This document shows positions 1,056 to 18,071 of a stretch of 24,000 nucleotides of DNA, piece after piece; within the stretch, counting starts at the first letter, position 1; the number at the start of each line of letters is the position of its first letter. The notes below the pieces were generated by a model that saw only the letters and a list, made by a program, of their open reading frames with translations, was not told the DNA's origin and ran no database searches. The position numbers were made by a program, and so were the translations under genes. The stretch spans positions 1 to 24,000 of the forward strand of contig DAOVXH010000004.1 of NCBI GenBank assembly GCA_030636255.1. Reading direction: 5' to 3'. The DNA comes from Methanomassiliicoccales archaeon. GTDB taxonomy: Archaea > Thermoplasmatota > Thermoplasmata > SG8-5.

Positions 1056-1804
1056 TGGTCCACCTCCTCATCCAGGTCACCCTTGGCCTCTATTTTTCTC
1101 TTCTTATATAGGTCAAGAATAGTATCCTTGTCCATGGACATCATTTTATCAACCTCGTCCAGGTATTTTCCTTTGTCCATTTCTTCCATACGGGCATTGA
1201 GTTCCTTTGATTCCGGGTCTATGTACTTTCCTCTCAATCTACGTGCAAGCTGGCCAACATGATAATGTTTGATATCGGCTGGACATCTCATTGCACACAA
1301 TCCGCACTGAATACAGTCAAATGAAATTTCGGCAGCCTTTGTAATATTGCCACGAAGTGCATTCTGGATATACATCATTACATTGATATCCTGGGGACAT
1401 GATTTTGTGCAGGTATTACATGATACACATCTGGCTATCTCGGGATAGATTGAAAGAATTATATTATCTTCAGGAGCCAGGTCATTGATGTCATACTTGG
1501 CTTTGTATGCTGGGACAAAAGGTATCTGGACCAGGTACATACCATCCTCAACAAGGGCTTGACAGGCAAGGGCAAAGTGCAATTTTTGCTCTTTCTCCTT
1601 TCTGTAGACCGTAGCACATGCCCCACAGAAGCCTGCTCGGCAACCGCAGCTTCTGACATACTGATAGCCAGCATATTCTATTGCCTTCATTATGGTGAAG
1701 CCCACAGGCACTTCATATCTTTTGCCCATGATGAAAATCTCCACATTACCAGCTTCCTGGATAGGTTCGTCTTGCTTTGCACACTCGACATCTGTCTCGG
1801 TCAT
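1052..1804 (-). CDS. Iron-sulfur subunit, SdhB/FrdB-like (2Fe-2S ferredoxin-like N-domain plus two 4Fe-4S motifs)
   Basis: Track ORF 1052..1831. Cysteine motifs are CGCRAGFCGAC, CVSCNTCTKSCP and CIQCGLCAMRCP. I moved the start to ATG 1804 (MTETDVE...) because GGAGGT lies 6 nt upstream. A start at 1831 would overlap the upstream gene. Confidence 0.75.
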   Translation of the reverse strand: MTETDVECAKQDEPIQEAGNVEIFIMGKRYEVPVGFTIMKAIEYAGYQYVRSCGCRAGFCGACATVYRKEKEQKLHFALACQALVEDGMYLVQIPFVPAYKAKYDINDLAPEDNIILSIYPEIARCVSCNTCTKSCPQDINVMMYIQNALRGNITKAAEISFDCIQCGLCAMRCPADIKHYHVGQLARRLRGKYIDPESKELNARMEEMDKGKYLDEVDKMMSMDKDTILDLYKKRKIEAKGDLDEEVDQ

Positions 1805-1823
1805 TTCAAAACCTCCGATGTAA

Positions 1824-2702
1824 TCAATCAATCACCCCTTTCTTCTTAAGAATTGGATTGGGGTCAACTGCATTTAAATCTAATCCCAGTGACTCGGCAT
1901 CCAGGCCAAGTGCAAGGGCAATAAGTTGAGTGAAATATAATGTTGGGAGCTGTCTGTATCCATCATACATGGATTCTGCTTCCTTTCCTCTGACATCCAG
2001 ATTATACTTGCACAGAGGACATGAAAGCATTATTACATCTGCATCATGTTCCAGGGCAAAGCTTGAGATGTTCTTGGCCCTCCTGGATGTTAGCTCTTTC
2101 TGGTCAATAGTCCTGTAGGAACCGCAGCACTCAATATTGAAGGGATTGTTCACAACCTCGGCTCCCAGTGCCTTAATCAGATCGGAAAAAATCTTTGGGT
2201 CTTCAGCATCATCAATGGCTACTTCCCTTGGCCTCAGCAACATGCATCCATAGTAGGGCATTACTTTAAGACCTTTCAGAGGTTTTTTCACCTTCTTCTT
2301 CAAAGTAGCAAAACCAACTTCATCTCTTAAGAATTCCAGAAAATGCATTATATTAACTGTATTATTATAATCATTCTCTTTATCCATAAAATCATTAAGT
2401 GTGTCCAGGTCGCTTTGACTTTCCTTGACCCTGATATCTGTCTGCTTCAATGTATTGTAACACATATCACATAGCACCACAACTTTATCTTGCTTCTGAT
2501 CCTCAATATGAATAAGATTTCTGAGAGGGGCCAGATGATGCATCAAATCATCACTTGTAAGGGATGCAACAACCCCACAACAATTCCATTCTTCCATCTC
2601 CACAAGCCTGTAGCCAAGTTTCTCGGCTATTGCCATGGCTGATGTTTCCAGATTTTTCGCGGAAGTCTTCAGAGTGCATCCAGGGTAATATAGCATGTCC
2701 AT
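1824..2702 (-). CDS. HdrB-like protein with two CCG domains (HdrB / SdhE / TfrB C-terminal family)
   Basis: Two CCG-type cysteine signatures: YYPGC...WNCCGV...LCDMC and YYGCM...IECCGS...LSCPLC. The track start at 2717 is TTG. ATG 2702 (or 2696) is the more likely start. Confidence 0.75.
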   Translation of the reverse strand: MDMLYYPGCTLKTSAKNLETSAMAIAEKLGYRLVEMEEWNCCGVVASLTSDDLMHHLAPLRNLIHIEDQKQDKVVVLCDMCYNTLKQTDIRVKESQSDLDTLNDFMDKENDYNNTVNIMHFLEFLRDEVGFATLKKKVKKPLKGLKVMPYYGCMLLRPREVAIDDAEDPKIFSDLIKALGAEVVNNPFNIECCGSYRTIDQKELTSRRAKNISSFALEHDADVIMLSCPLCKYNLDVRGKEAESMYDGYRQLPTLYFTQLIALALGLDAESLGLDLNAVDPNPILKKKGVID

Positions 2703-2709
2703 AGTATTC

Positions 2710-3144
2710 TCAACCAATATTTTTTCTAAATAGGCTCACAAATGCCATCTGGGGAATGTTTTTCTTTTCTTCCTCGGAAAGACATGTGATTTCTGTTTCA
2801 TCGATACTTAATCTTAATACTATCTGGCGAAGTGCCTCCATGAGAACTGTTATGTTAATATCCCTGGGACATCTCTCAGCGCAAATAAAGCAAGTGGAGC
2901 AAAGCCATATCGTCTTTGAATTCAATACCTCTTTCTTATCAAGGATAATATGCCGTATAACCTCGTCCGGCGTTAGGTCCATCTCCTCTACAAAAGGGCA
3001 GCCTGAAGCACATGTGCCGCATTGATAGCATCCAAAAACATTCTCGTCACAAAGTTCAAGAACCTCATCAACCAGCTTACCTGCCAGTTTAATTTCCTTT
3101 GATGTTTCAGGATGTTCACAATCATTCTCAGACTCTGTTGACAT
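2710..3144 (-). CDS. HdrC-like 2x[4Fe-4S] ferredoxin-domain protein
   Basis: Motifs CYQCGTCASGCP and CSTCFICAERCP. ATG 3144 (MSTESEND...) is preceded by a G7 run on the coding strand. The track start at 3165 is TTG. Confidence 0.7.
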   Translation of the reverse strand: MSTESENDCEHPETSKEIKLAGKLVDEVLELCDENVFGCYQCGTCASGCPFVEEMDLTPDEVIRHIILDKKEVLNSKTIWLCSTCFICAERCPRDINITVLMEALRQIVLRLSIDETEITCLSEEEKKNIPQMAFVSLFRKNIG

Positions 3145-3326
3145 TATACCCCCCCATAAAAACAAAAAGTTTTATGAGCGCTATGAATCATGGGAATAAT
3201 AATAAGATATATAAATGTTAAGTCAATTAATTTTATAAGCCCGTATATTCAAAGAATAATTATGTGAATAAAATCAAAAATAAAAAATATGTAAAAATCC
3301 TAATAATCAAGTATAAATTCGTAATA

Positions 3327-4430
3327 ATGGTAACTATTTCTGACGAAAAGTTCTTATCTATCCGATATATGCACCTCAACATGGTATCGAATATTTCGAA
3401 AAACGAGGGGCTAGTTCTCTGGGGGCTCACTGTTTACCCCGAACTTACTGATATAGAGATTTCCAAGAAACTGGACATGCCACATTCCACTTTCAGCACA
3501 ATAAGAAAAAGACTTCAGAAGAATGAGTATTACACCACTGTAAAGGTTCCAATGGTGCAGAATCTGGGTGCAGAGATGCTGGCGGTTCTTTATACATTTT
3601 TTAACCCGGCAATATCAGTGCAGCAACGGGCAACCATCACAACCAAGACAATTGAAATTTTTGAAGAAATATTCTATTCTGTAGGTGAGACACATAAGGG
3701 ATTTTCTGTATCATTTTCCGGCAATTATACTGCAATTGGCCAGATTACCGAAAGAAGAATAGAAACATTCGCCAAAGAAGGCCTTCTGGACATCCAGCAG
3801 CCCAAGGAAGTTATCTTTCCGTTCAAGATTAGCAAGATTCCATTGTTTTTTGATTTTGACGCACTTATCGCTGATGCCTTTGATATTGATCTAGAAGTTG
3901 AGGGAAAAAGAGGGATTGACCCCTCGGTGCACAATGTTGAACTCTCCAAAACCGAAAAGATTATACTACTGGCCATGGTTGAAAATCCAGATGCCACCGA
4001 CCTTATGCTTTCAGATATTGTTGATATGTCCAGGCATACAGTTTCCAAGGTAAAGCACAAACTGGAGGAAGCAGGTCTCATAACAAAGAAACGAATTCCA
4101 AATCTGGAAAAATTAGGATTCAAGATTATGACTTTCAATCATATAAATTTTAATCCACGCAAACCACTAGATAATGAACTTCTGGAATCCAATGTCCTGA
4201 ACAATCCATCCAGCATATTCCTGGCTGCCCGGAGCTTTGAATGTGTTCTCCTGTCAGTGTACAAGGACTACGAGGCATACCGGGAGGACCACGGAATGAG
4301 ATTGCAGCACCTGAAAGAAAATAATTATCTGGCTGACATGCCTGCTACTGGAAAATACATGATACCCAGTATGGTCATTATGAAGGATATGAATTTTGGG
4401 CCTATTTTGAAGAAGACGCTGATGTTGTAA
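3327..4430 (+). CDS. Putative transcriptional regulator with two tandem winged-helix modules (internal duplication)
   Basis: Track ORF 3264..4430 (GTG start). Module 1 is EGLVLWGLTVYPELTDIEISKKLDMPHSTFSTIRKRLQKNEYYTTVKVPMVQNLGAEMLAVLYTFFNP. Module 2 is EKIILLAMVENPDATDLMLSDIVDMSRHTVSKVKHKLEEAGLITKKRIPNLEKLGFKIMTFNHINFNP. The two are clearly parallel. The start is uncertain: GTG 3264, ATG 3327, ATG 3369 or ATG 3381. Confidence 0.5.
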   Translation: MVTISDEKFLSIRYMHLNMVSNISKNEGLVLWGLTVYPELTDIEISKKLDMPHSTFSTIRKRLQKNEYYTTVKVPMVQNLGAEMLAVLYTFFNPAISVQQRATITTKTIEIFEEIFYSVGETHKGFSVSFSGNYTAIGQITERRIETFAKEGLLDIQQPKEVIFPFKISKIPLFFDFDALIADAFDIDLEVEGKRGIDPSVHNVELSKTEKIILLAMVENPDATDLMLSDIVDMSRHTVSKVKHKLEEAGLITKKRIPNLEKLGFKIMTFNHINFNPRKPLDNELLESNVLNNPSSIFLAARSFECVLLSVYKDYEAYREDHGMRLQHLKENNYLADMPATGKYMIPSMVIMKDMNFGPILKKTLML

Positions 4431-4456
4431 CAATCGGCCAAGGCCGGATGTTACAA
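4425..4456 (+). terminator. Symmetric stem-loop overlapping the stop codon of the regulator gene
   Basis: TTGTAACA-at-CGGCC-aa-GGCCG-ga-TGTTACAA gives 13 bp of pairing. No T-run follows, so a terminator role is uncertain. It could instead be the 5' hairpin of the structured segment that follows. Confidence 0.35.
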
Positions 4457-4458
4457 TT

Positions 4459-4660
4459 CCGGCAGCCGTACAACCTAATTTTCTCGAAATCCAGATGATT
4501 TCGAGTTCCTATGACGGAAAATGTACGGTGCACGGCGGCTATTCCCCAAGGGTGATAAATATCGGGAGGGCTGACGGAAGGAAGCCCGAACGAATCATAA
4601 TAAGAGCGGGATGCAGTCTCCAGACTGGTAATCTGAATAATGCTTAGATGATTTCAAACC
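4459..4660. other. GC-enriched, hairpin-dense intergenic segment; candidate structured ncRNA of unknown class
   Basis: Nested pairing: CCGTACA (4466..4472) with TGTACGG (4522..4528) encloses a perfect 9-bp hairpin, CTCGAAATC-cagat-GATTTCGAG (4483..4505). A second hairpin, GGGCTGAC-GGAA-GGAAGCCC (4568..4587), has a GGAA tetraloop and tandem G.A pairs. CAGTCT/AGACTG pairs near 4615..4630. The 10-mer AGATGATTTC occurs twice (4494..4503 and 4646..4655). Other intergenic regions in the window are AT-rich. Confidence 0.3.
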
Positions 4661-4663
4661 GCT

Positions 4664-5359
4664 CTAGTCAGTTACAACCTCAAATCCATCTTTATCGAAA
4701 ATTAGTGGCAGATAACTCCTGCTGTGATGGGTCTGGCGCATTTTCACAATACTGAACCAGAGCTTGACATCATTTTCATCACGCCTTAGGTCCAGATGGA
4801 ATATTCCGTCTGCCAGGAAATCTTCGCTATTGCTGCAGAATTTGTCCGAGCCCTGTTCCATTTCAGTTATTAGGAATGCGGTAACGTCCATGTCCCTGAG
4901 CCATTCGAAAAAGTGGAATAATTCTTCTCTGGGGCTGTCGAACCTGGCCATTACTTCAAGAATCGGAAGAGAGTCGATAACTACCAAATCTATATCCATA
5001 TTCTTCTTGAGGTTCTTCAAATACATCTTGAAGACCTCCATCCAGGTCTGGTTGGTTAGCTGCACAAGTTTCTTACGGATCATGCCCAAATCAAGAACAC
5101 TTATTTCTTTTTCCAGGCCGCCTAGCTTCATTCCCAGGCCGTCCATATTGGTTAATAAACTATCACGGCCCTGCTCCAGGGTGACATAAACTCCTGCCTT
5201 GTCCTCCCTGTTTGCATTGTGATACAAAATATTGAATGCAAATGATGATTTCATGGTTCCTGGTTTTCCAGCTACAAGTATAACTGAACCTTCTGGAATA
5301 CCGCCCTGCATTACCTCGTCCAGTCCTTTAACATAGGTGTTGACTCTATTTACCTTCAT
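4664..5359 (-). CDS. KaiC/RadA-like RecA-superfamily ATPase (single domain)
   Basis: Walker A is GKPGTMKS and the Walker B-like strand is DLVVIDS. The N-terminal VKGLDEVMQGGIPEGSVILVAG is typical of KaiC-like proteins. GGAGGGG lies upstream of ATG 5359. Confidence 0.7.
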   Translation of the reverse strand: MKVNRVNTYVKGLDEVMQGGIPEGSVILVAGKPGTMKSSFAFNILYHNANREDKAGVYVTLEQGRDSLLTNMDGLGMKLGGLEKEISVLDLGMIRKKLVQLTNQTWMEVFKMYLKNLKKNMDIDLVVIDSLPILEVMARFDSPREELFHFFEWLRDMDVTAFLITEMEQGSDKFCSNSEDFLADGIFHLDLRRDENDVKLWFSIVKMRQTHHSRSYLPLIFDKDGFEVVTD

Positions 5360-5510
5360 ATCTGTGCCCCTCCGTTACTGTACCCATACTTCATTTAACC
5401 GTTATAAACATTTTGTAGGTTAAGGCCAGAGAGAGCCTATAGAGTGTATATATTTTATAAAACACAGTTTTTTATATTCCTCATATATCTCTATTACAAA
5501 AGGTGATGAC

Positions 5511-6128
5511 ATGACAGAGATGAAGAGCATTGACAGTATTGCCACAAGGGCACTTGAGCTCAAGCAGAGCGGAATGAACAATAAAGAGATAGCCAGGGAG
5601 CTGCATTTATCAGAAAATACAATATCCTGGTTGCTTACAAAGGGCGTGAAGTCCAAGAAACCAGAAGGAGACGCTCCAGTTGACGTAAAGATTGGCTGGA
5701 CATCTGTTGGTGTCTATGGTTCACGTATATCATTGATGTCTTCCATATTGGCAGATATACTGATGGAAGAGGCAGGGAAGAAAAAATTCGAAGTTGATAC
5801 CGTGGTTGGAGTTGCCATTAACGGAATACCACTGGCCACCCACATATCAGAAGAGCTGGATTTAGAATTCGGCGTTTATAGACCTCCATATAACATGGAA
5901 GGACCAGGAGCAATGAGTTCCAATTATGCCAGCATAAAGGGCAAGAAAATTGTTATGGTTGATGATGTCATTGGCACAGGAGAGACAATGATTCATACAA
6001 TCAAGGATCTCAAAAGCCAGGGTGCAAAACCCCAGTTGATTTTAACCATTGTCAACAAGACCGATATGAAGGAAATCGAGGGCGTTCCAGTCCGTGCACT
6101 GGTAAGAGCCTTAAGCCTTGCAGATTGA
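5511..6128 (+). CDS. gfcR: GfcR-type regulator (PyrE-like: N-terminal HTH plus phosphoribosyltransferase domain)
   Basis: The HTH is NKEIARELHLSENTISWLL. The PRPP-binding loop IVMVDDVIGTGET sits in the C-terminal PRTase fold. Overall layout matches archaeal PyrE-like/GfcR proteins. AGGTGATGAC lies directly before the ATG. Confidence 0.7.
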   Translation: MTEMKSIDSIATRALELKQSGMNNKEIARELHLSENTISWLLTKGVKSKKPEGDAPVDVKIGWTSVGVYGSRISLMSSILADILMEEAGKKKFEVDTVVGVAINGIPLATHISEELDLEFGVYRPPYNMEGPGAMSSNYASIKGKKIVMVDDVIGTGETMIHTIKDLKSQGAKPQLILTIVNKTDMKEIEGVPVRALVRALSLAD

Positions 6129-6137
6129 GGAAATTCC

Positions 6138-7712
6138 ATGCACTGGGTTGACGTTTACGCAGAAAAGCTCTTAGAGCAAGGTAAGTCACATATTATTGAG
6201 AGTGGAACCTCTATTTCCGGACAGCCGCATCTTGGCAGCGCCGAGGACATAATAATCTGTGATGGAATTCTGAAGGCCATAATCGAGAAGGGCGGCCAGG
6301 CAAAAGCAATCTGGGCCATGGATGACATGGACGGCCTTAGAAAAATACCAGCTCAACTTCCAAAGGAATTTGACAAATATCTTGGACAGCCAGCTTATGT
6401 TTTACCATGTCCGGACGGATGCTGCGGTTCTTTCAGAGAGCATTTTACAAGACCATTCCTTGAAAGCCTGGAAAGAATAGATGTCAAGCCAGAGCCAATA
6501 TCTGTGGCGCAGATGTACCAGGACGGAAAGTATGATGAAGTTGTCACAATCGCACTGACCAGGGCCCAGGAAATTAAAGACATCATGAAAGAGGTTTCAG
6601 GTAGCGAACGAGATGATGACTGGCTGCCGTTCTTTCCCATATGTGAGAACTGCGGAAAAATACTCAGTACAAAGGCCTATGAGTTTGACGGCAAGATGAT
6701 AAAATACACTTGCAAGGGCGGCATTGCCGGTAAAAATTTGATTCCTGGCTGCGGTCATGAGGGAGAGGCAGGCATTCGACAGGGCAAGCTTCCATGGCGT
6801 GTGGAATGGGCAGCAAGATGGAGTCATTTGGGGGTAACCTGCGAGCCAATGGGCAAAGATTTAATGGCTGCCGGAGGGACCTATGAAACAGGAAAGGCCA
6901 TTTGTGAGAAGATATTTGACAGTCCAGCGCCGATGCCAGTACCCTATGAGTGGATAGTCATAGGCGGCGGAAAAAGACTTGGAAAATCTGCTGGCACAAT
7001 TCTAACAATTGGCGAGATGATTGACATTATCACTCCAGAAATCGCCAGATACTTCTTTTTCAGAACCAACCCTGCCAGCCACAAGGAGATTGACTTCGAG
7101 CTGGCAATTCCCAAGCTTGCCGAAGAGTATGAGATTGCCGAGAAAATTTACTTTGATATTGATACTGGATTACCGGAAAAAGAGCTTGACGAAATGAAAA
7201 GAAAATACGAAGTAGCTCAGTTCCAAGGAATACCTGAAAACTTCAGCCAGGTATCTTACTCGCATTTAATTTCAACAGTTCAGACAGCCCAGGATTGGGA
7301 CCATATCTTGAAGAAACTGGCCAGAACTGATGATTTAAGCCAGATGACACCGGAGCATGAGCGTCGCCTGAAAGAAAAAGTTCAGGCTGTAAGAACCTGG
7401 CTTGACACCCACGCACCAGAAAACATGATTTTCCAGCTCCAGATGGAGCACCCGAATGTGGAAATTACCCCGGAGCAAAAAGAAGTACTGGCCACACTTT
7501 TATCCAAGATGGGAAGCATAGAGTGGACTGCGGAAAATGTCCACAGCAGCATTTATGATACTTCCGTGGAATCAGAAATAAAGGCTGGCCAGATGTTCAA
7601 ATTAATTTACCAAATATTCCTGGCCCGAAGCAAGGGCCCCAGACTGGGACATTTACTGGCATCGTTGGAAAAGGATTTTGTGCTTGAAAGAATAAAGTAT
7701 TTTTCGGCTTAG
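6138..7712 (+). CDS. lysK: Lysyl-tRNA synthetase, class I (archaeal type)
   Basis: MHWVDVYAEKL...SGTSISGQPHLGSAED carries the HIGH-like element. Also present: GKLPWRVEWAARW, EPMGKDL and a KMSKS-like GKRLGKSAG. It is collinear with the methanogen LysK sequence as I recall it. The start is 9 nt after the gfcR stop, preceded by GAGGAAA. Confidence 0.9.
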   Translation: MHWVDVYAEKLLEQGKSHIIESGTSISGQPHLGSAEDIIICDGILKAIIEKGGQAKAIWAMDDMDGLRKIPAQLPKEFDKYLGQPAYVLPCPDGCCGSFREHFTRPFLESLERIDVKPEPISVAQMYQDGKYDEVVTIALTRAQEIKDIMKEVSGSERDDDWLPFFPICENCGKILSTKAYEFDGKMIKYTCKGGIAGKNLIPGCGHEGEAGIRQGKLPWRVEWAARWSHLGVTCEPMGKDLMAAGGTYETGKAICEKIFDSPAPMPVPYEWIVIGGGKRLGKSAGTILTIGEMIDIITPEIARYFFFRTNPASHKEIDFELAIPKLAEEYEIAEKIYFDIDTGLPEKELDEMKRKYEVAQFQGIPENFSQVSYSHLISTVQTAQDWDHILKKLARTDDLSQMTPEHERRLKEKVQAVRTWLDTHAPENMIFQLQMEHPNVEITPEQKEVLATLLSKMGSIEWTAENVHSSIYDTSVESEIKAGQMFKLIYQIFLARSKGPRLGHLLASLEKDFVLERIKYFSA

Positions 7713-7767
7713 CTGGTTCAAAAAGTTTAATATGAACCTATCAATACCCGCAAAATGCGTAACGGCT

Positions 7768-7813
7768 CTCGACAAAATATTGTCGAGGCTGCGTGGAATG
7801 CAAAGCATTCCAC
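7768..7813 (+). other. Two adjacent perfect stem-loops between lysK and tRNA-Gln
   Basis: CTCGACAA-aata-TTGTCGAG (7768..7787) and GTGGAATGC-aaa-GCATTCCAC (7793..7813). Neither is followed by a T-run. Function unknown. Confidence 0.5.
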
Positions 7814-7856
7814 TGGCCCCAAGTCTATTCGGCCATTCGTGAACTCATAACCTCAT

Positions 7857-7928
7857 AGCCTTGTGGTGTAGCGGCTATCATGGGAGACTCTGGATCTCTC
7901 GACTCCAGTTCAAATCTGGGCAAGGCTA
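7857..7928 (+). tRNA. tRNA-Gln (anticodon CUG)
   Basis: Manual cloverleaf. Acceptor AGCCUUG pairs perfectly with CAAGGCU. Anticodon stem is GGAGA/UCUCU and the loop is CU-CUG-GA. The variable region is 4 nt. T-stem is UCCAG/CUGGG with loop UUCAAAU. Discriminator is A and no CCA is encoded. A1:U72 plus A73 is the archaeal tRNA-Gln pattern. Confidence 0.9.
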
Positions 7929-7948
7929 TTTAATTATTTTATTATCTG

Positions 7949-7976
7949 AGCCTTGCCCAGATTTAAGAGGAATCGC
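7949..7976 (-). repeat. Inverted partial copy of the tRNA-Gln 3' end (T-arm 3' half plus acceptor strand)
   Basis: 7949..7964 (AGCCTTGCCCAGATTT) is the exact reverse complement of tRNA positions 7912..7927 (AAATCTGGGCAAGGCT). Weaker similarity continues for about 11 nt: cgaTTCCtcTT versus cgaCTCCagTTc. The two arms are separated by a 21-nt AT-rich spacer. Confidence 0.8.
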
Positions 7977-8038
7977 TTGCGAGACGAATAATCAAGAGAA
8001 ATCCTTATAACATAATCCCCTATGCCAGAACTGATAAC

Positions 8039-9703
8039 ATGGAGCAGCCAAAAGACTTCATCAGGGACATTGTGGCCGAAGACAATAAAACCGGCAAGTT
8101 CAAAGGTAGAGTGCATACCAGATTTCCTCCAGAGCCTAATGGATATCTCCATATTGGGCATGCCAAGGCTTTCATGCTGAGCTATGGTGTTGCCAAAGAG
8201 AATAACGGAAAATTCAATCTTAGATTCGACGATACCAATCCAGTCAAGGAAGAAACCGAATACGTGGACGGAATAATCGCCGATGTCAAGTGGATGGGAG
8301 CGGACTTTGAGGACCGTTTGCTGTTTGCTTCTGACTATTTTGGACAGTTATATGATTATGCCGAGGATTTGATAAAAAAAGGCAGGGCATATATTGATGA
8401 CCAGACACCCGAGGAAATGAAATTAAATCGGGGCGACTTCGAGAAGCCAGGCAAAGATAGTTCATTTCGAAACAGGTCAGTTGAGCAAAACCTTGGTTTA
8501 TTCCGACGCATGAAGGCCGGAGAATTCGCAGACGGTGTAAGGGTGCTTCGAGCCAAGATTGACATGACACATCCCAATATGAACATGCGTGACCCTGTAA
8601 TATACAGAATTCTCCATGCCAGTCATCACAATACCGGGGATGAATGGTGCATTTATCCAATGTATGATTGGGCACATGGGCTTGAGGATTCAATTGAGGG
8701 CATAACCCACTCACTTTGCGATGTTTCATTTGAGAATCATCGACCGCTTTATGACTGGTTTCTGGATCAGCTGGGGGTCTATCATCCGCAGCAGATTGAG
8801 TTCGCCAGACTCAATATGACCTACACTATCATGAGCAAGCGCAAGCTGCTGGTTCTGGTGGAAAATGGTCATGTAAAGGGCTGGGACGACCCCAGGCTGC
8901 CAACACTTCTGGGACTGCGAAGGCGCGGTTATACTCCACATTCAATTCAGGACTTCCTGAACAGGGTAGGCGTGGCCAAGAAGGAAAATTGGATAGCCAT
9001 CGAGCTTTTAGAGCACTGCATCAGGGAGCATCTGAACAAGATTGCTCCGAGATATATGGGTGTTCTTGACCCTCTGAAGATTGTAATTACCAATTTGCCA
9101 GATGGCCATGAGGAGTTCATGGAGGCCATTAACAATCCAGAGGATGAGAGTGCCGGCACCAGGCAGATTCCTTTCTCCAAGGAGATTTACATTGAAAGAG
9201 CAGATTTCATGGAAGAGCCAGTGAAGAAATTTTTCAGGCTTGCTCCAGGCAGGGAAGTACGGCTTCGATATGCCTATTTCATGACATGCAATGATATTGT
9301 GAAAGATGACGCTGGCAATATTATCGAGCTGCATTGCACAGTGGACCCGGAGACAAAGGGCGGCAATGCCCCTGACGGCCGAAGGGTAAAGGCCACAATG
9401 CACTGGGTCAGCGCAAAACATGCCATTGATGCCGAAGTTCGATTATACGATAAATTATTCACTGTGGAAAACCCACTGGCAGAAGATGGGGTCTTTGAGA
9501 GCTATGTTAACAAGGACTCACTGGAAATCCGGACGAACTGCAAGATTGAACCGGCTGTGAAAGAACTTGGTATTGAAGATAAAATTCAGTTTGAGAGGAC
9601 TGGATATTTCTGTGTTGACAAGGACACTACGCCTGAGAAGATGGTTTTTAATCGGACTACTGGGTTGAGGGATACCTGGGCAAAAGTGAAAAACCAAAAT
9701 TGA
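8039..9703 (+). CDS. glnS: Glutaminyl-tRNA synthetase (bacterial-type GlnRS)
   Basis: [20 protein letters not shown] holds the HIGH motif. Also present: [45 protein letters not shown] (KMSKS), [20 protein letters not shown] and the C-terminal [14 protein letters not shown]. It is collinear with E. coli GlnRS as I recall it over the whole length, including the GlnRS-specific C-terminal anticodon-binding domain. Confidence 0.92.
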
Positions 9704-9951
9704 TTTTCAGTCCAACATAATATTTCTCAAAAAATCTAGCTAGTGTATTGATAATGATTGTTGAACGCAAAGCGTTCGACCACGACATGGCATCAAATAT
9801 ATACAAAATTTAATGTCGTACTGCTCACAATAATCTACTGGCAATGGTTGGATGCGAGGACAAAATATAAACAGATAGAGTATCCGACATGATTGAGCAA
9901 TTTCTCAACAATCGCAATCAAAAATTCCGCAATCGCATGGCATTTAGCAGC

Positions 9952-9999
9952 GGATTGCGGAGAGATACCTGGGCGAAGGTTCAGAAACAGCAAAAGTAA
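9952..9999 (+). pseudogene. Relic of a second glnS 3' end (last ~15 codons plus stop)
   Basis: gga ttg cgg aga gat acc tgg gcg aag gtt cag aaa cag caa aag taa encodes GLRRDTWAKVQKQQK*. The intact gene ends [13 protein letters not shown] (9661..9703). Differences in the conserved block are mostly synonymous third positions. Weaker similarity (F.NR) lies just upstream, inside a 36-codon ORF at 9889..9999. Confidence 0.55.
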
Positions 10000-10032
10000 T
10001 ATATCATTATCTTCATGTAATCAATTGTGTGG

Positions 10033-13000
10033 ATGAAGAGAAATTATGTAGCCTGGATATGTGCGTTTTTGATGCTCAGCAGCGTGTTTGTTGGATTGCA
10101 AGTAAATGAAAATGCTGAAGCCAGGATAGCTGAGGGAGATGGAGTATTGTATACACCTCATGCGCCAATTAGAATAGATTCGGATGCGGATTTTCCTGGG
10201 ATTGCGTCTGGAGGTGACGGAAGTGCTGGTTCTCCCTGGATAATAGAAAATCATGAGATAAATGGCACGGGTCATGGATATTGCATTTACATTGGGAATA
10301 CTACTGAGCATTTCATTGTGAGAAATAGTTTTGTACACAATGCAGATGGATTACTAAGTTGGCCGTATTATACAGATTCAGGATTGACATTATATAATGT
10401 TCAAAATGGAGTAGTCTCAAACAACACCGCAGCTTCAAACCTTCGTCAAGGATTTTTGCTCCACACCTCCTCCAATAACACTATTGTTGACAACAATGTA
10501 TCTTCATTAAATTTGGATGGTATTTTACTCTACTCCTCCTCAAAAAACACCATTAGAAATAATACTGCAACTTTTAACAATGACTTTGGAATTTGCCTTA
10601 GCCTCTCCAACAATAATACAATATCAAGCAATAATGTGTCATTCAACAATAACAATGGCATGTACATAGTCTCTTCCACAAACAACACATTTTCAGGTAA
10701 TTATGTTGCATCGAACAATGACAATGGTATGCACCTAATTTCTTCGAGTAATAATTCTCTTGCTAATAATTCTATTATGAACAATGATGATTATGGAATC
10801 TTAATTGAGACCTCAATCAATAACACTCTAACTCATAATACCATGTACATGAATCTTTTGAGGTGCTTAACCCTCCGGTTTTCAAATAGCAACTATATAA
10901 CGAATAATAATTTATTTTCAAACAACGGTTGTTCTATTATGCTTGATTCGTCTTATAATAATTCAATTTATCATAATAACATAATCAATAGTGCTTTCGC
11001 CTTTGATAACACAGGATTTAACTCCTGGGACAATGGCTATCCGGACGGCGGCAATTACTGGAGTACATTCAACACCAGCCTTTATGTTGGAAACGAGAGC
11101 TTCTTCGCCTCTGGCGGCGAGGAGGGTTTCTATCTGGATCAAAACGAGAACACACCAGGATTCCAGGGTATCCAGACATTACATGAGATCAGATATGTTT
11201 GGGACAATGACTGGTCCTTTGTCTATGTATTGGTCGAGGGTGTAGATTTTGATATAAATATTACCACTGGCTGGGTTCAGGTTTACTGGGGAGGATTTGT
11301 TCTAGGCGATCAGCTCTATAGTGAATACACTTGTCTTGTAAACCCACCAGACCTATTCTGGGGACCAAATCAAGATATTCCTGACTCTGACTTTATTTAT
11401 GATATGCCATACCCAATTTTGGGAGGAACCAATGAGGATTCATATCCACTTGCTTACCCAATCATCAACGGAAGGTTCCAGCGTGGCCCAATAAGGATAG
11501 ATTCCAATGCTGATTTTGACCAAGCTCACGGTGTAATCAATTGGGATTCTGGAGATGGAAGTATTGACAATCCCTGGATAATCGAGAAATGGGATATTAA
11601 TGGAACTGGCCATGAATTTTGTATTTATGTTGGGAATACTACGGACTATTTTGAGGTGAGGGGCAATAGTTTTCACAATGCAAGTGGATTCGGGGTCATA
11701 ATACGCAATTGCTATTATGGAATAATTCTTGACAATGAAATAATTTACAATAATAACAATGGAATTTACTTACCGCTTTCATTTTATATCACAATTCAAA
11801 ATTGTAAGATATTATACAATAGCAATTCAGGCATTTATTTGAATGAGGCTTCTCGTCTAATCACAATTGAAAATAACACTATAAGTTACAATGCTGGCAA
11901 TGGTATTGAAACTTTTTATTCCTGGGGCAATAAAATATATAACAATGTGATAAGTAATAATGACGGTTCAGGTATCGGAACTTTTGCAGGTAGTAAAAAT
12001 ATAATAAAACAAAACACTATCTCAAATAATCAATATGCTATCGCACTCTTACTTTTTGATGGCAATGGAAGTATAATCAAACAAAACACTATCTCAAATA
12101 ATCAATATGGAATTTATACGGTCTTTTCTTCAAGTAATATTAGTTATTATCATAATAATTTCATTAACAACACCATCCAAGCATATGACGATGGCACCAA
12201 CAATACCTGGGACAATGGCTACCCAGATGGAGGGAACTATTGGTCTGACTATTCCGGTGTTGATTTGAATAGTACACCCTCCCAGGATATACCACCACCA
12301 GACGGAATCGGAGACACACCATATACAGACATTGACGGAGTGGCTGGAACCATAGACAATTATCCATTGATGGAGCCCTGGATGCCGCCCCCTATACTCA
12401 CCTATGACATAGACCTCACAACAGGCTGGAACCTAATCTCCCTGCCCCTTGCCCAGTCTGATGAAGATATTTATTCTGTATTATCCAGTATTGACGGTGA
12501 CTGGGACAGAATTAAGCTCTATGATTCACAGAGTGTGAATCACTGGTTATCGAGTTCCATATACAGTCCAGACCTGAGTGAAATTGACCAGTTGAACCAC
12601 ACAGTAGGCATCTGGATACACATGGTGAATGCAACAACTCTCACTGTGGAAGGAATAGAACCAGTGTTCACAAATATAACATTATATGCTGGTTGGAATC
12701 TGGTAGGCTATCCATCATTGTTTCCTGAAACTGTGGCAAATGCCCTCTGGGGAACTGGAGCAGACCGGGTGGAGGTATGCGACCTTGAAGAACCAGGCTT
12801 GATAAAAGAGGTGGGGCCAACTTATATCATGCAGCCAGGAGAAGGGTACTGGGTTCATGTTCCGGCTGATACTGTCTGGACAACTGAAAAGACTGTAGGA
12901 AATCCTCAAATTGTTGTACGAGGGGACAACCCTGACACTGGCGGTTATGAATACATTAGATTTAACAACACAGAACCAGTAAATGGTGATACAATTTCAA

Positions 13001-14442
13001 TAACAGCTACAATCCAGAATCTTGGTGGAGGTTCTGCAGCGGTTGATGTGAAATATTATGATGGTGAGGAAATATCGAGCCAGCTCATTGGAACCGATTA
13101 CTTGTTATTACCTGCACAGGGTGAAATAGATGCTGTAATAAACTGGAAAGCAAGTCCTGGTGGAGCTCACTCAATTATTGTTACAGCAGAGGTAAATGCC
13201 ACATATGCACTTGTAAATGATATTTATGACCCGTATCTTCCTGACAATCGAAACAGCACAGCCATCTTGGTGATACCAAAAATATTACTGGTTGACGATG
13301 ACAACCACACAAATGACTATTCCCTAGACGACACAACCTCGTATATGAGAGACGCCTTGAGAAATGCAAATTTTGAATATGACTTTGTAATTGTTGGGCC
13401 TGGTGACGGACCTGGCTATGATTACGGTGATTATCCCCTTGAGGATTATGACATCGTTATATGGATGACTGGCCATACCGAGACAAACACCCTCACACGA
13501 CCACTGAACCCTGCAGAACCAATGGCCACCAGAACCGATGATGTCGCAAACCTTATGAGATTTCTTGATGGGGAGTCCACAGGAGGAAATGGCGGTAGTT
13601 TGTGGCTGATTAGTGAGGGATACTGGGACGATGCTATCGGAGACCCGGTACACGAACCATTCTTTATGAATTACTTGCACCTGAGCGATATTGCCACAAC
13701 ACCCATGCCATCCCTAAAGAACACACTCCCCACAGAACTCTGGGGCAGGGAGAATCATACAATTACCAATAACTATGCAGATAATCCAATAAACACCGAG
13801 ATTAAGGTTGCTGGAACCGATGCGGCCTGGTCATGGGCCTCCGGTGATTTTCCGGACACCAGTGCTATTGCTCTCAATAATAGCGATAATTCCCGGGTTT
13901 ATGGTGTGACCTATGATTCAGATGATTATCCAGCTGACCCAATAGCAGATTCAAGAATATTTGTCCAGACCTGGGATTTTTCAAGGATACAGGACACTGC
14001 AACGCAGGCACAGTACGCCTATAGAGCTTTATTTTGGCTTGGAAACTATTCTATGATGTTCGGAAGAGATGTTGCATTATCTCAGCAGACTATTGAGCCA
14101 ACCACTGTTACAATTAATGAAACAATAAACATAACTGCCATTGTTCGAAACAACGGGTTCAATGACTATAATTCTTCCCAAGGCGATAATCTGTGGTATC
14201 TTCTGAGGATTACAGATGAATATAACAATGATATTACCGTGCCACATCTAGAGCGGATAGATTATTTGGGAATTGGGTCTAACAATGAGTTTATTATTAA
14301 TCATCAATTTACTTTTCATGAGATTGGAAACTTCACTGTCTGGATAGAAGTGGACCCATACAATTACATTATTGAAACCAATGAACTCAACAACCAGGCA
14401 TCTGAATATTACAATACATTTGAAATTGAGGTTTTGCCCTAG
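10033..14442 (+). CDS. Large secreted surface protein: two right-handed beta-helix (PbH1/NosD-like) modules plus C-terminal CARDB-like domains; probable glycoprotein/adhesin
   Basis: Track ORF 10027..14442 (GTG). ATG 10033 gives MKRNYVAWICAFLMLSSVFVGLQVNENAEA, a signal-peptide-like N-terminus. Long runs of ~22-24-aa N/S/I-rich coils are present (NNT.., SNN.., G.Y/I). A duplicated head motif PIRIDS.ADF...PWIIE..(I)NGTGH.(Y/F)CIY(I/V)GNTT and tail motif WDNGYPDGGNYWS occur twice. Two CARDB-like segments carry ..I.A.(I/V).N.G.. strands. Several dozen N-x-S/T sequons are visible by eye. I found no C-terminal TM or PGF-type anchor. Confidence 0.7.
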   Translation: MKRNYVAWICAFLMLSSVFVGLQVNENAEARIAEGDGVLYTPHAPIRIDSDADFPGIASGGDGSAGSPWIIENHEINGTGHGYCIYIGNTTEHFIVRNSFVHNADGLLSWPYYTDSGLTLYNVQNGVVSNNTAASNLRQGFLLHTSSNNTIVDNNVSSLNLDGILLYSSSKNTIRNNTATFNNDFGICLSLSNNNTISSNNVSFNNNNGMYIVSSTNNTFSGNYVASNNDNGMHLISSSNNSLANNSIMNNDDYGILIETSINNTLTHNTMYMNLLRCLTLRFSNSNYITNNNLFSNNGCSIMLDSSYNNSIYHNNIINSAFAFDNTGFNSWDNGYPDGGNYWSTFNTSLYVGNESFFASGGEEGFYLDQNENTPGFQGIQTLHEIRYVWDNDWSFVYVLVEGVDFDINITTGWVQVYWGGFVLGDQLYSEYTCLVNPPDLFWGPNQDIPDSDFIYDMPYPILGGTNEDSYPLAYPIINGRFQRGPIRIDSNADFDQAHGVINWDSGDGSIDNPWIIEKWDINGTGHEFCIYVGNTTDYFEVRGNSFHNASGFGVIIRNCYYGIILDNEIIYNNNNGIYLPLSFYITIQNCKILYNSNSGIYLNEASRLITIENNTISYNAGNGIETFYSWGNKIYNNVISNNDGSGIGTFAGSKNIIKQNTISNNQYAIALLLFDGNGSIIKQNTISNNQYGIYTVFSSSNISYYHNNFINNTIQAYDDGTNNTWDNGYPDGGNYWSDYSGVDLNSTPSQDIPPPDGIGDTPYTDIDGVAGTIDNYPLMEPWMPPPILTYDIDLTTGWNLISLPLAQSDEDIYSVLSSIDGDWDRIKLYDSQSVNHWLSSSIYSPDLSEIDQLNHTVGIWIHMVNATTLTVEGIEPVFTNITLYAGWNLVGYPSLFPETVANALWGTGADRVEVCDLEEPGLIKEVGPTYIMQPGEGYWVHVPADTVWTTEKTVGNPQIVVRGDNPDTGGYEYIRFNNTEPVNGDTISITATIQNLGGGSAAVDVKYYDGEEISSQLIGTDYLLLPAQGEIDAVINWKASPGGAHSIIVTAEVNATYALVNDIYDPYLPDNRNSTAILVIPKILLVDDDNHTNDYSLDDTTSYMRDALRNANFEYDFVIVGPGDGPGYDYGDYPLEDYDIVIWMTGHTETNTLTRPLNPAEPMATRTDDVANLMRFLDGESTGGNGGSLWLISEGYWDDAIGDPVHEPFFMNYLHLSDIATTPMPSLKNTLPTELWGRENHTITNNYADNPINTEIKVAGTDAAWSWASGDFPDTSAIALNNSDNSRVYGVTYDSDDYPADPIADSRIFVQTWDFSRIQDTATQAQYAYRALFWLGNYSMMFGRDVALSQQTIEPTTVTINETINITAIVRNNGFNDYNSSQGDNLWYLLRITDEYNNDITVPHLERIDYLGIGSNNEFIINHQFTFHEIGNFTVWIEVDPYNYIIETNELNNQASEYYNTFEIEVLP
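12001..12109 (+). repeat. Near-identical 37-nt direct repeat, 72 nt apart (one beta-helix coil duplicated)
   Basis: ataataaaacaaaacactatctcaaataatcaatatg (12001..12037) versus ataatcaaacaaaacactatctcaaataatcaatatg (12073..12109) differ at 1 position. Both encode IIKQNTISNNQY. Confidence 0.85.
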
Positions 14443-15295: not shown

Positions 15296-15417
15296 GTGGC
15301 TGACAGCGTTCTGCGGTTCCCGTGGACTCTCGTACCACAGTACCGCGCAGAACGCAGGTGGACTTTACTTCTGGGTTCGGAAAGAGACCAGGTGTGGCCC
15401 CACCGCTGTGACCGTCA
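15296..15417 (-). rRNA. 5S ribosomal RNA (stand-alone)
   Basis: The reverse complement reads GACGGUCACAGCGGUGGGGCCACACCUGGUCUCUUUCCGAACCCAGAAGUAAAGUCCACCUGCGUUCUGCGCGGUACUGUGGUACGAGAGUCCACGGGAACCGCAGAACGCUGUCAGCCAC. Conserved 5S blocks are CCACACC, CCGAACCC.GAAGU.AAG, GUACUG and GGGAAC. The 5' and 3' ends pair as helix I. A TTTATA box lies ~26 nt upstream and a T5 run follows immediately downstream. Ends are good to about 3 nt. Confidence 0.9.
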
Positions 15418-15525
15418 AACCAAACCATGGATAGCCATGCTGTATAAATAGTTTTCAGTTTAATCGACTCAATCACGATAGATTTATATCAACATCTACA
15501 ATACCAGGCCAAAAGGTGCAATATC

Positions 15526-16247: not shown

Positions 16248-17015
16248 ATGATTGATGACGTAGAAGTAACAAGAAAGATTTTCGAACGCTACTCCAGAGA
16301 ATTTCTGGACAATACCCAGGTGGATGTAATTATTGCCGGGGCTGGCCCAGCCGGTCTCACCGCTGCAAGAATACTGGCCAAAGCCGGGAAAAAAATCTTG
16401 ATTGTTGAAAGAAAGCTTGCCCCAGGAGGAGGAATGTGGGGCGGTGGAATGAATTACCCGGTCATTGTCATACAGCCAGAATCAAAACATCTCCTTGATG
16501 GAATCAATATACCAGTTCAGGATGCTGGTGATAATTATTACACTGCAGATTCAGTGGAATGTGTTGCAAAACTTTTGGCCAGCGCAATCGATGCTGGTGC
16601 AAAGGTCTGGAATGCTGTTACAGTCACAGATGTCATGATACGCCAGGAAAAAGTTGCTGGCGTTGTCATAAATTGGACCGGCGTGGACCTCACTGGAATG
16701 CATGTTGACCCATTGACCATCGGTGCAAAATATGTTCTTGATGGTACAGGCCATGATGCCAGCGTCTGCGAGGTTACCCACAGGAAGGCTGGAAAATTGA
16801 ATACACCTAGTGGGGGTGTTGAAGGAGAACGCTCCATGTGGGCCGAAGTGGGTGAGCAGACTGTGGTCGAAAATACCAAGGAAATATACCCTGGCCTCTA
16901 TGTTATTGGCATGGCTGCTAATGCAGTAATGGGAGCCCCAAGAATGGGGCCCATATTCGGCGGCATGCTCCTTTCCGGAGAAAAGGCAGCCAGGGAAATC
17001 CTGGAGAAATTATAG
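16248..17015 (+). CDS. thi4: Thiamine thiazole synthase, Thi4 family (archaeal type)
   Basis: DVIIAGAGPAGLTAARILAKAG is the FAD/NAD fold. Also present: ERKLAPGGGMWGGGM, DGTGHDASV and GMAANAV.GAPRMGPIFGGMLLSG. The start is set at ATG 16248, with GGTG 6 nt upstream; the track start GTG 16239 is possible. The stop overlaps the convergent radical-SAM gene's stop by 6 nt (TTATAG). Confidence 0.85.
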   Translation: MIDDVEVTRKIFERYSREFLDNTQVDVIIAGAGPAGLTAARILAKAGKKILIVERKLAPGGGMWGGGMNYPVIVIQPESKHLLDGINIPVQDAGDNYYTADSVECVAKLLASAIDAGAKVWNAVTVTDVMIRQEKVAGVVINWTGVDLTGMHVDPLTIGAKYVLDGTGHDASVCEVTHRKAGKLNTPSGGVEGERSMWAEVGEQTVVENTKEIYPGLYVIGMAANAVMGAPRMGPIFGGMLLSGEKAAREILEKL

Positions 17016-18071
17016 ACCCAGTTCCTTGGCAACTTCCCTTGCAGTATCTATGAAGCAATAATCACCATTTACACGCTGGAGCCAGCATGCTCCACGGCAC
17101 AGGTCTAAAACGTCACAATCCTTGCAGTCCTGGGGCACATCATCGAAGAGTGTTTCCCTGAATCGGGTGAAGCCCTTCCACCACATGTCTGCTATTGGAA
17201 CTTCCTTGACATTTCCTTCTGAGTATAATTCCGGGAACTCAAGTGCCGGACATCCCATAACCTCTCCGTCTGCCATTATTGTGAATGTGTTCCATCCGCA
17301 ACCGCAGAAGAATGGTGGCCTAATAACGCCATCCAGTGGTCCAAGATAACCGTGACCTTCGCAAACTTCGATATTGTGGCCTTTCTGCTTCATCTCATAG
17401 ACATACTTGAAGACCTTCTTCATTATCACAGGGTCATTCTTCATGCCAACTGCTCGGCCTTCTGGAACTATTGTCTGAATCCTGTGGCGCATACTTCCAT
17501 GTGCTACGCAATCATCGTAAATCAGAGGTATCTCGTCCACATTTTCTTCCATGTAAACTGTTGCTGTTGCAACCACTGGAAGTTCCATCTCTGTGAATAT
17601 ATCCAGGGCTTCCATGGCCTTTGCATAGGCTCCCTTTGTTCCCCTTATCTTGTCGTGATTGTCCCTGTAACCGTCAAGGCTCACCATAACGGAGAATGGC
17701 TCTGCTTCTTCAATCATCTTTCTGTTTTCTTTGATTGCAAATCCATTGGTAACAAAACCAGTCATTATGCCGCGTTCTTTGCATCGCTGCATGACCTCTG
17801 GAAAGTCAGGCCTTAGTATGGCCTCTCCACCGGTCAAGGACAGTACCTTGGTTCCCATCTCTGCCAGTTGGTCAATAACATTCAATATCTGCTCGGTTGT
17901 GAGCTCGTCGGGCTTTGCCTCGTCAGCAGCTGTTCCACAATGCGGGCATTTGAAATTACACTTGTGTGTGGCAATCCACTGGACATAAAATGGTGCCAGT
18001 GTTTTGTTCTCAAACTGCGTTCTGTATTCTTCCTCTGCTCTTATCTGTAAAGGTCTGTCATCATCTTTCAT
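17010..18071 (-). CDS. Radical SAM/SPASM-domain enzyme 2 (no N-terminal peptide-recognition domain); putative peptide maturase
   Basis: The radical SAM motif is C-NFK-C-PH-C, about 38 residues from ATG 18071. The full SPASM pattern is CGWNTFTIMADGEVMGC ... CKDCDVLDLCRGAC ... C. ATG 18071..18069 lies 1 nt after the stop of the upstream radical SAM gene, with GAGAGGGA upstream. The track's longer start at 18146 would overlap that gene by 74 nt. Confidence 0.8.
   Translation of the reverse strand: MKDDDRPLQIRAEEEYRTQFENKTLAPFYVQWIATHKCNFKCPHCGTAADEAKPDELTTEQILNVIDQLAEMGTKVLSLTGGEAILRPDFPEVMQRCKERGIMTGFVTNGFAIKENRKMIEEAEPFSVMVSLDGYRDNHDKIRGTKGAYAKAMEALDIFTEMELPVVATATVYMEENVDEIPLIYDDCVAHGSMRHRIQTIVPEGRAVGMKNDPVIMKKVFKYVYEMKQKGHNIEVCEGHGYLGPLDGVIRPPFFCGCGWNTFTIMADGEVMGCPALEFPELYSEGNVKEVPIADMWWKGFTRFRETLFDDVPQDCKDCDVLDLCRGACWLQRVNGDYCFIDTAREVAKELGL

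Follow-up and report, generated by a model that had tools for sequence, protein, structure and literature searches.

A bacterial-type glutaminyl-tRNA synthetase gene beside an archaeal-type tRNA-Gln in a clade of Thermoplasmatota

A Methanomassiliicoccales archaeon (Thermoplasmatota; Thermoplasmata; SG8-5) carries a gene, glnS, for a bacterial-type glutaminyl-tRNA synthetase (GlnRS), and the start codon of this gene lies 110 nt downstream of an archaeal-type tRNA-Gln(CUG). We analyzed positions 1 to 24,000 of the forward strand of contig DAOVXH010000004.1 (assembly GCA_030636255.1), a stretch of 24,000 nt that we call the window, together with related loci from other genomes, which are referred to by L numbers. 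An earlier note on this DNA had pointed to a bacterial-type GlnRS in an archaeal context, and the observation is genuine on both counts, as judged by NCBIfam models and neighbor-joining (NJ) trees for the enzyme and by archaeal flanking genes for the context. Our explanation is that a Thermoplasmatota ancestor acquired a bacterial glnS once, long ago, and that the gene has descended vertically since, usually beside the host's tRNA-Gln and near lysS, the gene for lysyl-tRNA synthetase (LysRS). Most likely, the enzyme charges the host's own archaeal tRNA-Gln and so forms Gln-tRNA-Gln by a direct route. To this explanation as a whole, with its single old transfer, vertical descent and direct charging, we assign a probability of about three in four.

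Reviews from 2021 and 2022 state that all known archaea are without GlnRS and ascribe its absence to the distinctiveness of archaeal tRNA-Gln (PMC9499178, PMC8007984), another review speaks of 'almost all archaea' (PMC8762117), and no archaeal GlnRS turned up in a survey, published in 2016, that covered about 2,500 genomes (PMC5388404). A passing remark has GlnRS transferred to Archaea (PMC8879553), and a 2024 preprint places glnS beside cox genes in Heimdallarchaeia (bioRxiv 10.1101/2024.07.04.601786). Our literature search found no paper on the Thermoplasmatota GlnRS clade, on its tRNA linkage or on the switch of the tRNA discriminator described below. The earlier note had held that the finding would be ordinary if many related archaea were already known to carry a vertically inherited GlnRS. 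This is so in the sequence databases, where NCBI already annotates such proteins as GlnRS in metagenome-assembled genomes (MAGs) of Thermoplasmata, and it is not so in the literature. The window gene belongs to a known family and is ordinary for its clade, and the pattern at the level of the clade is under-described.

Identity of the enzyme

The glnS product matches PF00749 (E 6e-104), PF03950 and PF20974; it thus has the class I catalytic domain of the E/Q type and the two beta-barrel domains that bind the anticodon. It has HIGH at residues 38-41 (nt 8150-8161) and MSK at residues 265-267 (nt 8831-8839), and the glnS equivalog model TIGR00440 (NCBIfam) scores 716.9 bits against a cut-off of 425.8, which bears out the full-length GlnRS that the earlier note had described. 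Among the models for glutamyl-tRNA synthetase (GluRS), gltX_arch scores 361.1 bits, under its cut-off of 401.75, and gltX_bact scores 71.5 bits. Identity to E. coli GlnRS is 55% across 542 aligned columns, and the PDB match has an E-value of about 1e-200, the top entry being 1QRS, the D235N mutant of E. coli GlnRS. The glutamine-pocket residues Arg30, Tyr211, Cys229 and Gln255 (E. coli numbering), whose roles come from established structural work, are kept in the window protein as R28, Y209, C227 and Q252. The anticodon-reading residues R341, R402, R410, Q517 and R520 are invariant across the first nine archaeal sequences aligned, and the unpairing loop has kept its full length, with a sequence that has diverged. 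In sequence, the protein thus has every feature by which a bacterial-type GlnRS is recognized, and it is predicted to be catalytically active.

The protein is bacterial in its overall build as well. With 554 aa and an alignment that starts at residue 3, equivalent to E. coli residue 6, the appended N-terminal domain of eukaryotic GlnRS is absent. The alignments with human and yeast GlnRS begin only near residue 250 and score 400-444 bits, compared with 670 bits for E. coli GlnRS. The best-scoring NCBIfam model is NF011291 (GlnRS/YqeY, Deinococcus type; 810 bits), and its match is limited to profile positions 12-561 of 769. Residue 554 is the last of the window protein, which is without a YqeY/GatB-like extension. 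NCBI gives this name, GlnRS/YqeY, to the Thermoplasmata proteins, and as a product name it consequently overstates what the window protein contains.

Archaeal context of the gene

The genes that neighbor glnS are archaeal and include a class I LysRS (TIGR00467), aIF6, a sulfide-dependent Thi4, KaiC and TrmB; the named homologues of the LysRS are all archaeal, mostly labeled Thermoplasmata or Thermoplasmatota. The GC content is even along the window, and glnS is indistinguishable from its neighbors in GC, in GC at third codon positions (GC3) and in codon usage (r = 0.81). A block consisting of a phosphoribosyltransferase (PRTase) gene, lysS and glnS, here written PRTase-lysS-(tRNA-Gln)-glnS, recurs in CP070751.1, a closed chromosome of 5.16 Mb (L081), on ENA and JGI contigs (L082/L083), on a 450 kb ENA contig that shares the TrmB-KaiC-PRTase-lysS prefix (L085) and in a distant genome (L088). 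Archaeal flanks, uniform composition and synteny in independent assemblies exclude, for practical purposes, the bacterial or chimeric contig that the earlier note had named as a way in which its reading could fail.

Phylogeny and age of the transfer

Scanning GTDB genomes, one for each species, yielded five Thermoplasmatota-labeled loci among 80, the remainder being bacterial, and exact-protein look-ups added L081, L082, L084, L085, L088 and L091. In all, 12 distinct Thermoplasmatota glnS loci were found. A metagenome scan gave bacterial-type loci only, among the matches listed, and these were used as controls. GlnRS trees were built by NJ from 84-86 sequences, with E. coli as the root and no eukaryotic outgroup.

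The archaeal GlnRS sequences are monophyletic in 192 of 200 bootstrap replicates when nine of them are included and in 90 of 100 when eleven are. Their clade falls inside a bush of bacterial sequences whose branching is poorly resolved and which includes Planctomycetota, Chloroflexota and Fermentibacteria, among others. The nearest outgroup, L003, is bacterial. At that locus (8565-11674) the start of glnS shares 4 nt with a bacterial-type gltX, the gene for GluRS, so that the two form a gltX-glnS operon.

The archaeal clade divides into two sub-clades: gA, which holds the window, L085, L084, L082 and L001 (94% support), and gG, which holds L088, L029, L015, L081 and L002 (77%), with L013 placed near gA. 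The LysRS proteins of these genomes yield a tree with the same two-way division, and LysRS identity between gA and gG is only 37-47%, indicating that the split is deep and that the transfer predates it, into the ancestor of a broad Thermoplasmatota group. The horizontal acquisition proposed by the earlier note therefore stands, and its assignment to this lineage alone does not; the recipient was an older ancestor, before the deep Thermoplasmatota split. Every one of the 12 archaeal loci keeps an intact glnS reading frame in the face of 64-89% divergence within the clade, which argues for long purifying selection. Monophyly within the bacterial radiation, shared synteny and host-like codon usage together indicate one old bacteria-to-archaea transfer followed by vertical inheritance.

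The adjoining tRNA-Gln and its linkage to glnS

ARAGORN calls only one tRNA gene in the window, tRNA-Gln(CTG) at 7856-7929, and the Rfam tRNA model, whose gathering score is 29, gives it 53.2 bits. Read in the Rfam register, its acceptor stem is AGCCUUG/CAAGGCU, giving A1:U72 and the discriminator A73. The tRNA of L013, which encodes ...GGGGCU-A-CCA, that is, A73 and then CCA, confirms this register independently. The window tRNA further has G2:C71, C3:G70, G10 and the anticodon loop CUCUGGA, and CCA is not encoded, the tRNA being followed by TTTAAT. Its position relative to glnS, its A1:U72 and A73 and its missing CCA are all as the earlier note had reported. With A1:U72, A73 and the anticodon CUG, one of the two (CUG or UUG) that define the type, this is an archaeal-type tRNA-Gln. 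In E. coli, classical work established the identity elements for GlnRS beyond G73 as U1:A72, G2:C71, G3:C70, G10 and the anticodon (U/C)UG. The window tRNA matches this bacterial set in G2:C71, G10 and the anticodon loop and differs from it in A1:U72, C3:G70 and A73. The discriminator itself is reported to separate archaeal tRNA-Gln, with A73, from bacterial tRNA-Gln, with G73 (PMC9499178).

Nearly all the linked archaeal tRNAs are built on a AGCCCCGUGGUGUAGCGG-type body with A1:U72, G2:C71, C3:G70 and G10, and the bacterial tRNA-Gln genes linked to glnS all have U1:A72, a UGGGG-type body and G73. The archaeal tRNAs have the same anticodon loop, CUCUGGA, as several of the bacterial glnS-adjacent tRNA-Gln(CUG) genes, which gives a simple reason why the enzyme could have functioned right after its transfer. 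A73 is the discriminator of the window, L084, L082, L085 and L013, and G73 that of L081, L002, L015, L029 and L088, with L029 also having G1.U72. This division follows the phylogeny, so that one sub-clade has converged on the bacterial identity base G73, and we regard this convergence as the best indirect sign that these tRNAs are really used by GlnRS. The earlier note had argued that the enzyme must charge a tRNA that still carries elements of the transamidation pathway. This is plausible for the window; among its relatives the tRNA moves to G73 and the unpairing loop of the enzyme is remodeled.

Of the 12 archaeal loci, 10 have a tRNA-Gln no more than 1 kb away from glnS, compared with 9 of 155 bacterial loci (Fisher p = 1.6e-9, uncorrected for relatedness). 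Linkage of synthetase and cognate tRNA, which had been singled out as unusual in itself, is consequently the conserved state of the clade, and it also occurs in about 6% of bacterial loci. Five archaeal loci (L002, L015, L081, L082 and L088) have tRNA-Gln genes on both sides of glnS. The glnS ATG lies about 21 nt past the 3' end of tRNA-Gln in L015 (1741-1834), with a GAGGAGG motif, and about 35 nt past it in L029 (6889-6997). Such short gaps point to co-transcription of tRNA and mRNA at these two loci, unlike the window with its 110-nt spacer and TATA-like element. The junction of tRNA and glnS is kept neither in L089 and L090, the closest loci by LysRS, nor in L091, the closest by GlnRS.

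Some loci hold additional tRNA genes. A divergent tRNA-Gln(CUG) with A73, which we call type 2, lies just 3' of glnS in L081 (11872-11946), L002 (7080-7155) and L088 (11165-11237), where the main tRNA-Gln genes have G73. The L002 copy has a C2.C71 mismatch and scores 48 bits, and the L088 copy has an odd anticodon loop, UCCUGCA, and falls under the Rfam gathering score. The type 2 gene could be a decaying ancestral gene or a tRNA retained for another route. Downstream of the window glnS we looked for a degraded second tRNA-Gln and found none; a relic of the 3' end of glnS was found instead. Upstream of the tRNA-Gln/glnS cluster of L002, a 123-nt Rfam tRNA match (4395-4517, 48.7 bits) with no ARAGORN call is probably an intron-containing archaeal tRNA gene.

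Changes at the acceptor end of the enzyme

The unpairing loop of E. coli GlnRS spans residues 132-141, and its Leu136 opens the U1:A72 pair (PMC2978374). By an unbiased sliding-window measure, conservation is equal overall, the match to the bacterial consensus being 0.73 for archaeal sequences versus 0.76 for bacterial ones, and the second most archaeal-specific stretch of 10 residues, E. coli 130-139, overlaps this loop. The bacterial consensus there is YRGTLTEPGK; the window protein has Asp for Thr135, Phe for Leu136, Glu for Thr137 and Lys for Glu138. Leu136 is replaced in the archaeal sequences by Phe, Tyr, Val or Trp. Position 135 is Asp or Asn in the A73 group and mostly Thr in the G73 group, a pattern that is suggestive of co-evolution with the discriminator and that rests on one split of the tree.

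Asp235 of E. coli GlnRS corresponds to Asn233 in the window (nt 8735-8737), and Asn occupies this position in all archaeal sequences. Of 75 bacterial relatives, 22 have it too, and many of these are Planctomycetota. The D235N change is a known relaxed-specificity mutation of E. coli GlnRS. Ile, Val and Ala are also found at this position. An archaeal-specific adaptation from Asp235 to Asn was considered and rejected because of the bacterial relatives that share it, and the Asn may be, at most, a pre-adaptation.

How the enzyme could recognize its tRNA can be put as follows. Recognition would proceed mainly through the anticodon loop CUCUGGA, with further contributions from a first pair that is weak and easily melted, A1:U72 in the window and U1:A72 in bacteria, from G2:C71 and from G10. 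The mismatch between a bacterial enzyme and an archaeal acceptor end may have been accommodated in three ways: by Asn in place of Asp235, the reader of G2:C71 and G3:C70, a replacement common already in bacterial relatives; by a remodeled unpairing loop that would handle the 1:72 pair; and by a change of the tRNA itself, from A73 to G73, in one sub-clade. Charging of the window tRNA in vivo is thus predicted from sequence, and the changes listed are candidates for adaptations.

Hairpins, transcription signals and a glnS relic

The last 16 nt of the window tRNA (7912-7927), comprising the T-stem and the 3' strand of the acceptor, are perfectly complementary to 7949-7964 across a T-rich spacer of 21 nt. 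Given transcriptional read-through, the resulting hairpin outcompetes the cloverleaf in RNA folds. The tRNAs of L085 (about 7652-7664) and L013 (554-564) have the same geometry in their 3' trailers, with a T-rich spacer of about 20 nt and arms that match their own acceptor sequences. At L084 (9615-9661) and L082 (8777-8822 and about 11711-11757) it is the 5' end of the tRNA that pairs, with the leader. The hairpin arms co-vary with the acceptor sequence of each tRNA, and such complementarity in the flanks is rare among the other 28 tRNAs examined.

The T-rich spacer after the tRNA resembles an oligo-T archaeal terminator and may act as one. A CTTATAA element stands at a similar distance (about 35 nt) 5' of the ATG in the window and in L091, the locus of a homologue with 92% identity, which suggests that glnS has its own, putative archaeal promoter, from which the mRNA would be leaderless or nearly so.

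Some 145-300 nt past the stop codon of the intact glnS, the window holds a decayed copy of the 3' end of the gene, which tblastn aligns with residues 510-553 of GlnRS (E-value 3e-4 for the local region and 0.18 for the window as a whole). It reads VGCEDKI, then an in-frame stop, and further on MAFSSGLRRDTWAKVQKQQK and a stop; its ending, GLRRDTWAKVQKQQK before the stop, resembles that of P0002, the 92% homologue. The segment is missing from L091, the locus of that homologue, so that it is a lineage-specific partial duplication, and the region is an insertion in the window.

Other features of the locus

Table 1. Features of the window around glnS, with positions in the 24,000-nt stretch.
Feature	Position	Strand	Basis and remarks
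PRTase gene; part of the PRTase-lysS-(tRNA-Gln)-glnS block	5511..6128	+	
lysS (archaeal class I LysRS); conserved 5' neighbor in the synteny block and phylogenetic marker of the host	6138..7712	+	Pfam, NCBIfam, LysRS tree
tRNA-Gln(CUG)	7857..7928	+	ARAGORN; Rfam RF00005, 53.2 bits; archaeal-type body
Perfect 16-nt inverted repeat	7912..7964	+	Arms 7912-7927 and 7949-7964; repeat search and RNA folds
T-rich spacer TTTAATTATTTTATTATCTG	7929..7948	+	Directly 3' of the tRNA; loop of the tRNA-end hairpin; sequence
TATA-like element CTTATAACAT	8004..8013	+	About 31-35 nt 5' of the glnS ATG; sequence
glnS, bacterial-type GlnRS, 554 aa	8039..9703	+	ORF list, Pfam, NCBIfam, alignment
Unpairing-loop coding region	8426..8455	+	Window residues 130-139, E. 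coli 132-141; alignment columns
Decayed glnS 3' relic, last ~45 codons	9847..9999	+	tblastn

Several neighboring genes deserve a brief description. Directly 3' of the window glnS (10027-14442) is a gene for a secreted NosD/beta-helix/CARDB protein of 1471 aa, with MarC nearby; L084 has a protein of the same kind, of >4100 aa, directly 5' of glnS (1-8891), also with MarC nearby. A stand-alone 5S rRNA gene (15298-15419, minus strand; 87.8 bits) lies between MarC and an RDD-family gene and not beside 16S or 23S rRNA genes. On the minus strand at 17010-21895, two adjoining radical-SAM/SPASM genes, one with a PqqD-like N-terminal domain, are followed by an unannotated ORF of 297 aa and an ABC-transporter ATPase gene; this looks like a RiPP-type peptide-modification cluster. 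Genes for small GTPases of the Arf/Ras/Roc family lie beside the lysS-glnS locus in L082 (9028-9846, minus strand) and L086 (2859-4224).

Alternative explanations

Several observations weigh against a single old transfer with direct charging. The window tRNA itself has A73 and C3:G70 rather than G73 and G3:C70. The A73/G73 division and the pattern at residue 135 each correspond to a single split of the tree, approximately one evolutionary event, and so are weak as evidence of covariation. Asn at position 235 (22/75) and His180 (11/75) occur in bacterial relatives and are thus not specific to archaea. The contig of the 92% homologue, L091, has no adjoining tRNA, and the lysS loci closest to that of the window, L089 and L090, have no glnS downstream. 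The trees were built by NJ only and rooted on E. coli, and they single out no donor phylum, the sister grouping with L003/L024 appearing in 34 of 200 replicates.

The strongest competitor to this explanation is a dual route, in which GlnRS would operate beside a non-discriminating GluRS and the amidotransferase GatDE, charging only certain species of tRNA-Gln, or acting only under certain conditions, while a separate A73 tRNA stays with transamidation. GatDE reads the A1:U72 pair (PMC2330236), and this pair is retained in nearly all of the linked tRNAs. The extra A73 tRNA-Gln(CUG) just 3' of glnS in L081, L002 and L088, all of the G73 clade, would be suited to such a role, and an amidotransferase is kept beside GlnRS in some bacteria (PMC4206432). 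These extra copies, however, look degraded (the C2.C71 mismatch in L002, the UCCUGCA loop and sub-threshold score in L088), and A1 has been lost in L029, which has G1.U72. Neither gatD nor gatE is among the genes of the window, and rough probes for GatB and AnsA (asparaginase) had no match in the 14 archaeal loci searched, which, being a search of the loci only, is weak evidence. We consider a dual route possible, at well under even odds.

It is improbable that the protein, though GlnRS-like, does something else, for instance charges tRNA-Gln in the manner of a GluRS or acts outside translation, or that it is a neutral passenger unable to use an archaeal tRNA. A claim of orthogonality in the literature (from 2000, as cited in PMC8762117) and the divergence of the acceptor-end loop, including the loss of Leu136 to Phe, Tyr, Val or Trp, would fit such a reading. 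Against it, the glutamine-pocket and anticodon-reading residues are kept, the archaeal GluRS models stay under their cut-off, the reading frame is intact in 12 of 12 archaeal loci despite their divergence, and the tRNA discriminator has converged on bacterial G73.

A cassette transfer would explain the linkage by having glnS and tRNA-Gln arrive together from a bacterial donor, for example on a tRNA-targeting element, so that the tRNA too would be foreign. In its favor, tRNA-Gln(CUG) lies right beside glnS in the bacterial loci L046, L157, L014, L065, L067, L075, L098 and L105, tRNA-Gln genes stand on both sides of glnS in five archaeal loci, and the flanks contain inverted fragments of tRNA ends. 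The tRNA sequences decide the matter. The archaeal linked tRNAs differ in body from the bacterial ones, the former being nearly all A1:U72 on a AGCCCCGUGGUGUAGCGG-type body and the latter all U1:A72, UGGGG-type and G73, which marks the linked tRNAs as native; moreover, the protein-family matches in the window include no integrase gene near the locus. We therefore reject a bacterial tRNA co-transferred with glnS, and the cassette as a whole is very improbable. Least credible of all is an assembly or binning artefact, either bacterial glnS DNA joined to an archaeal contig or a wholly bacterial contig, which could appeal to a nearest non-archaeal GlnRS that is bacterial at 65-73% identity, about equal to identities within the archaeal clade, and which is effectively refuted by archaeal genes on both flanks, an archaeal-type tRNA beside glnS, uniform composition and codon usage, and synteny repeated in independent NCBI, ENA and JGI assemblies, a closed chromosome among them.

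Significance and comparison with known systems

The reviews explain the supposed absence of GlnRS by an archaeal tRNA-Gln that has co-evolved with GatDE and that GlnRS could not recognize. A bacterial GlnRS kept for a long time beside an archaeal-type tRNA-Gln, in a whole clade, contradicts that explanation. The A73 and G73 sub-clades, with their differing unpairing loops, are natural variants for charging assays, and such variants could reveal which of the identity elements actually stand in the way of a transfer. The archaeal GlnRS/tRNA-Gln may also supply new synthetase-tRNA pairs for genetic-code engineering. We offer a broader proposal only tentatively: that in a large clade of Thermoplasmatota direct glutaminylation by a bacterial GlnRS has taken over from the GatDE route, supposedly universal in archaea, or is in the course of doing so, with successive steps in the rewiring of tRNA identity preserved in living lineages (A73 to G73, A1:U72 to G1.U72, a remodeled loop, decaying A73 copies), and that the tRNA-end hairpins are a functional device, for termination, processing or the coupling of tRNA-Gln and glnS, rather than scars of recombination.

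Of the known systems, the window enzyme most closely resembles E. coli GlnRS (1GTS/1QTQ; TIGR00440), with which it shares length, domain order, HIGH and MSK, the pocket and anticodon residues and the presence of the unpairing loop. It differs in its archaeal host, in Asn233 in place of Asp235, and in its presumed tRNA, which has A1:U72, C3:G70 and A73 where that of E. coli has U1:A72, G3:C70 and G73. The Deinococcus-type GlnRS (NF011291; 2HZ7), whose model is the best-scoring one for the window enzyme, carries a C-terminal YqeY, which the window enzyme lacks. Bacterial loci with a glnS-adjacent tRNA-Gln(CUG), such as L046 of Planctomycetia and L014 of Chloroflexi, have the same side-by-side pair, several of them with the CUCUGGA loop, but they are sporadic (9/155) and variable in orientation, and their tRNAs have U1:A72, G3:C70 and G73, usually with an encoded CCA. 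The glnS of Heimdallarchaeia (Asgard) is likewise archaeal, but it belongs to another phylum and another neighborhood, beside cox, and no tRNA linkage is mentioned for it. The archaeal indirect route, by non-discriminating GluRS and GatDE, leads to the same end product, and the window tRNA retains the A1:U72 pair that GatDE reads; unlike that route, the window encodes a dedicated GlnRS, and its relatives have tRNAs with G73 and, in one case (L029), G1.U72.

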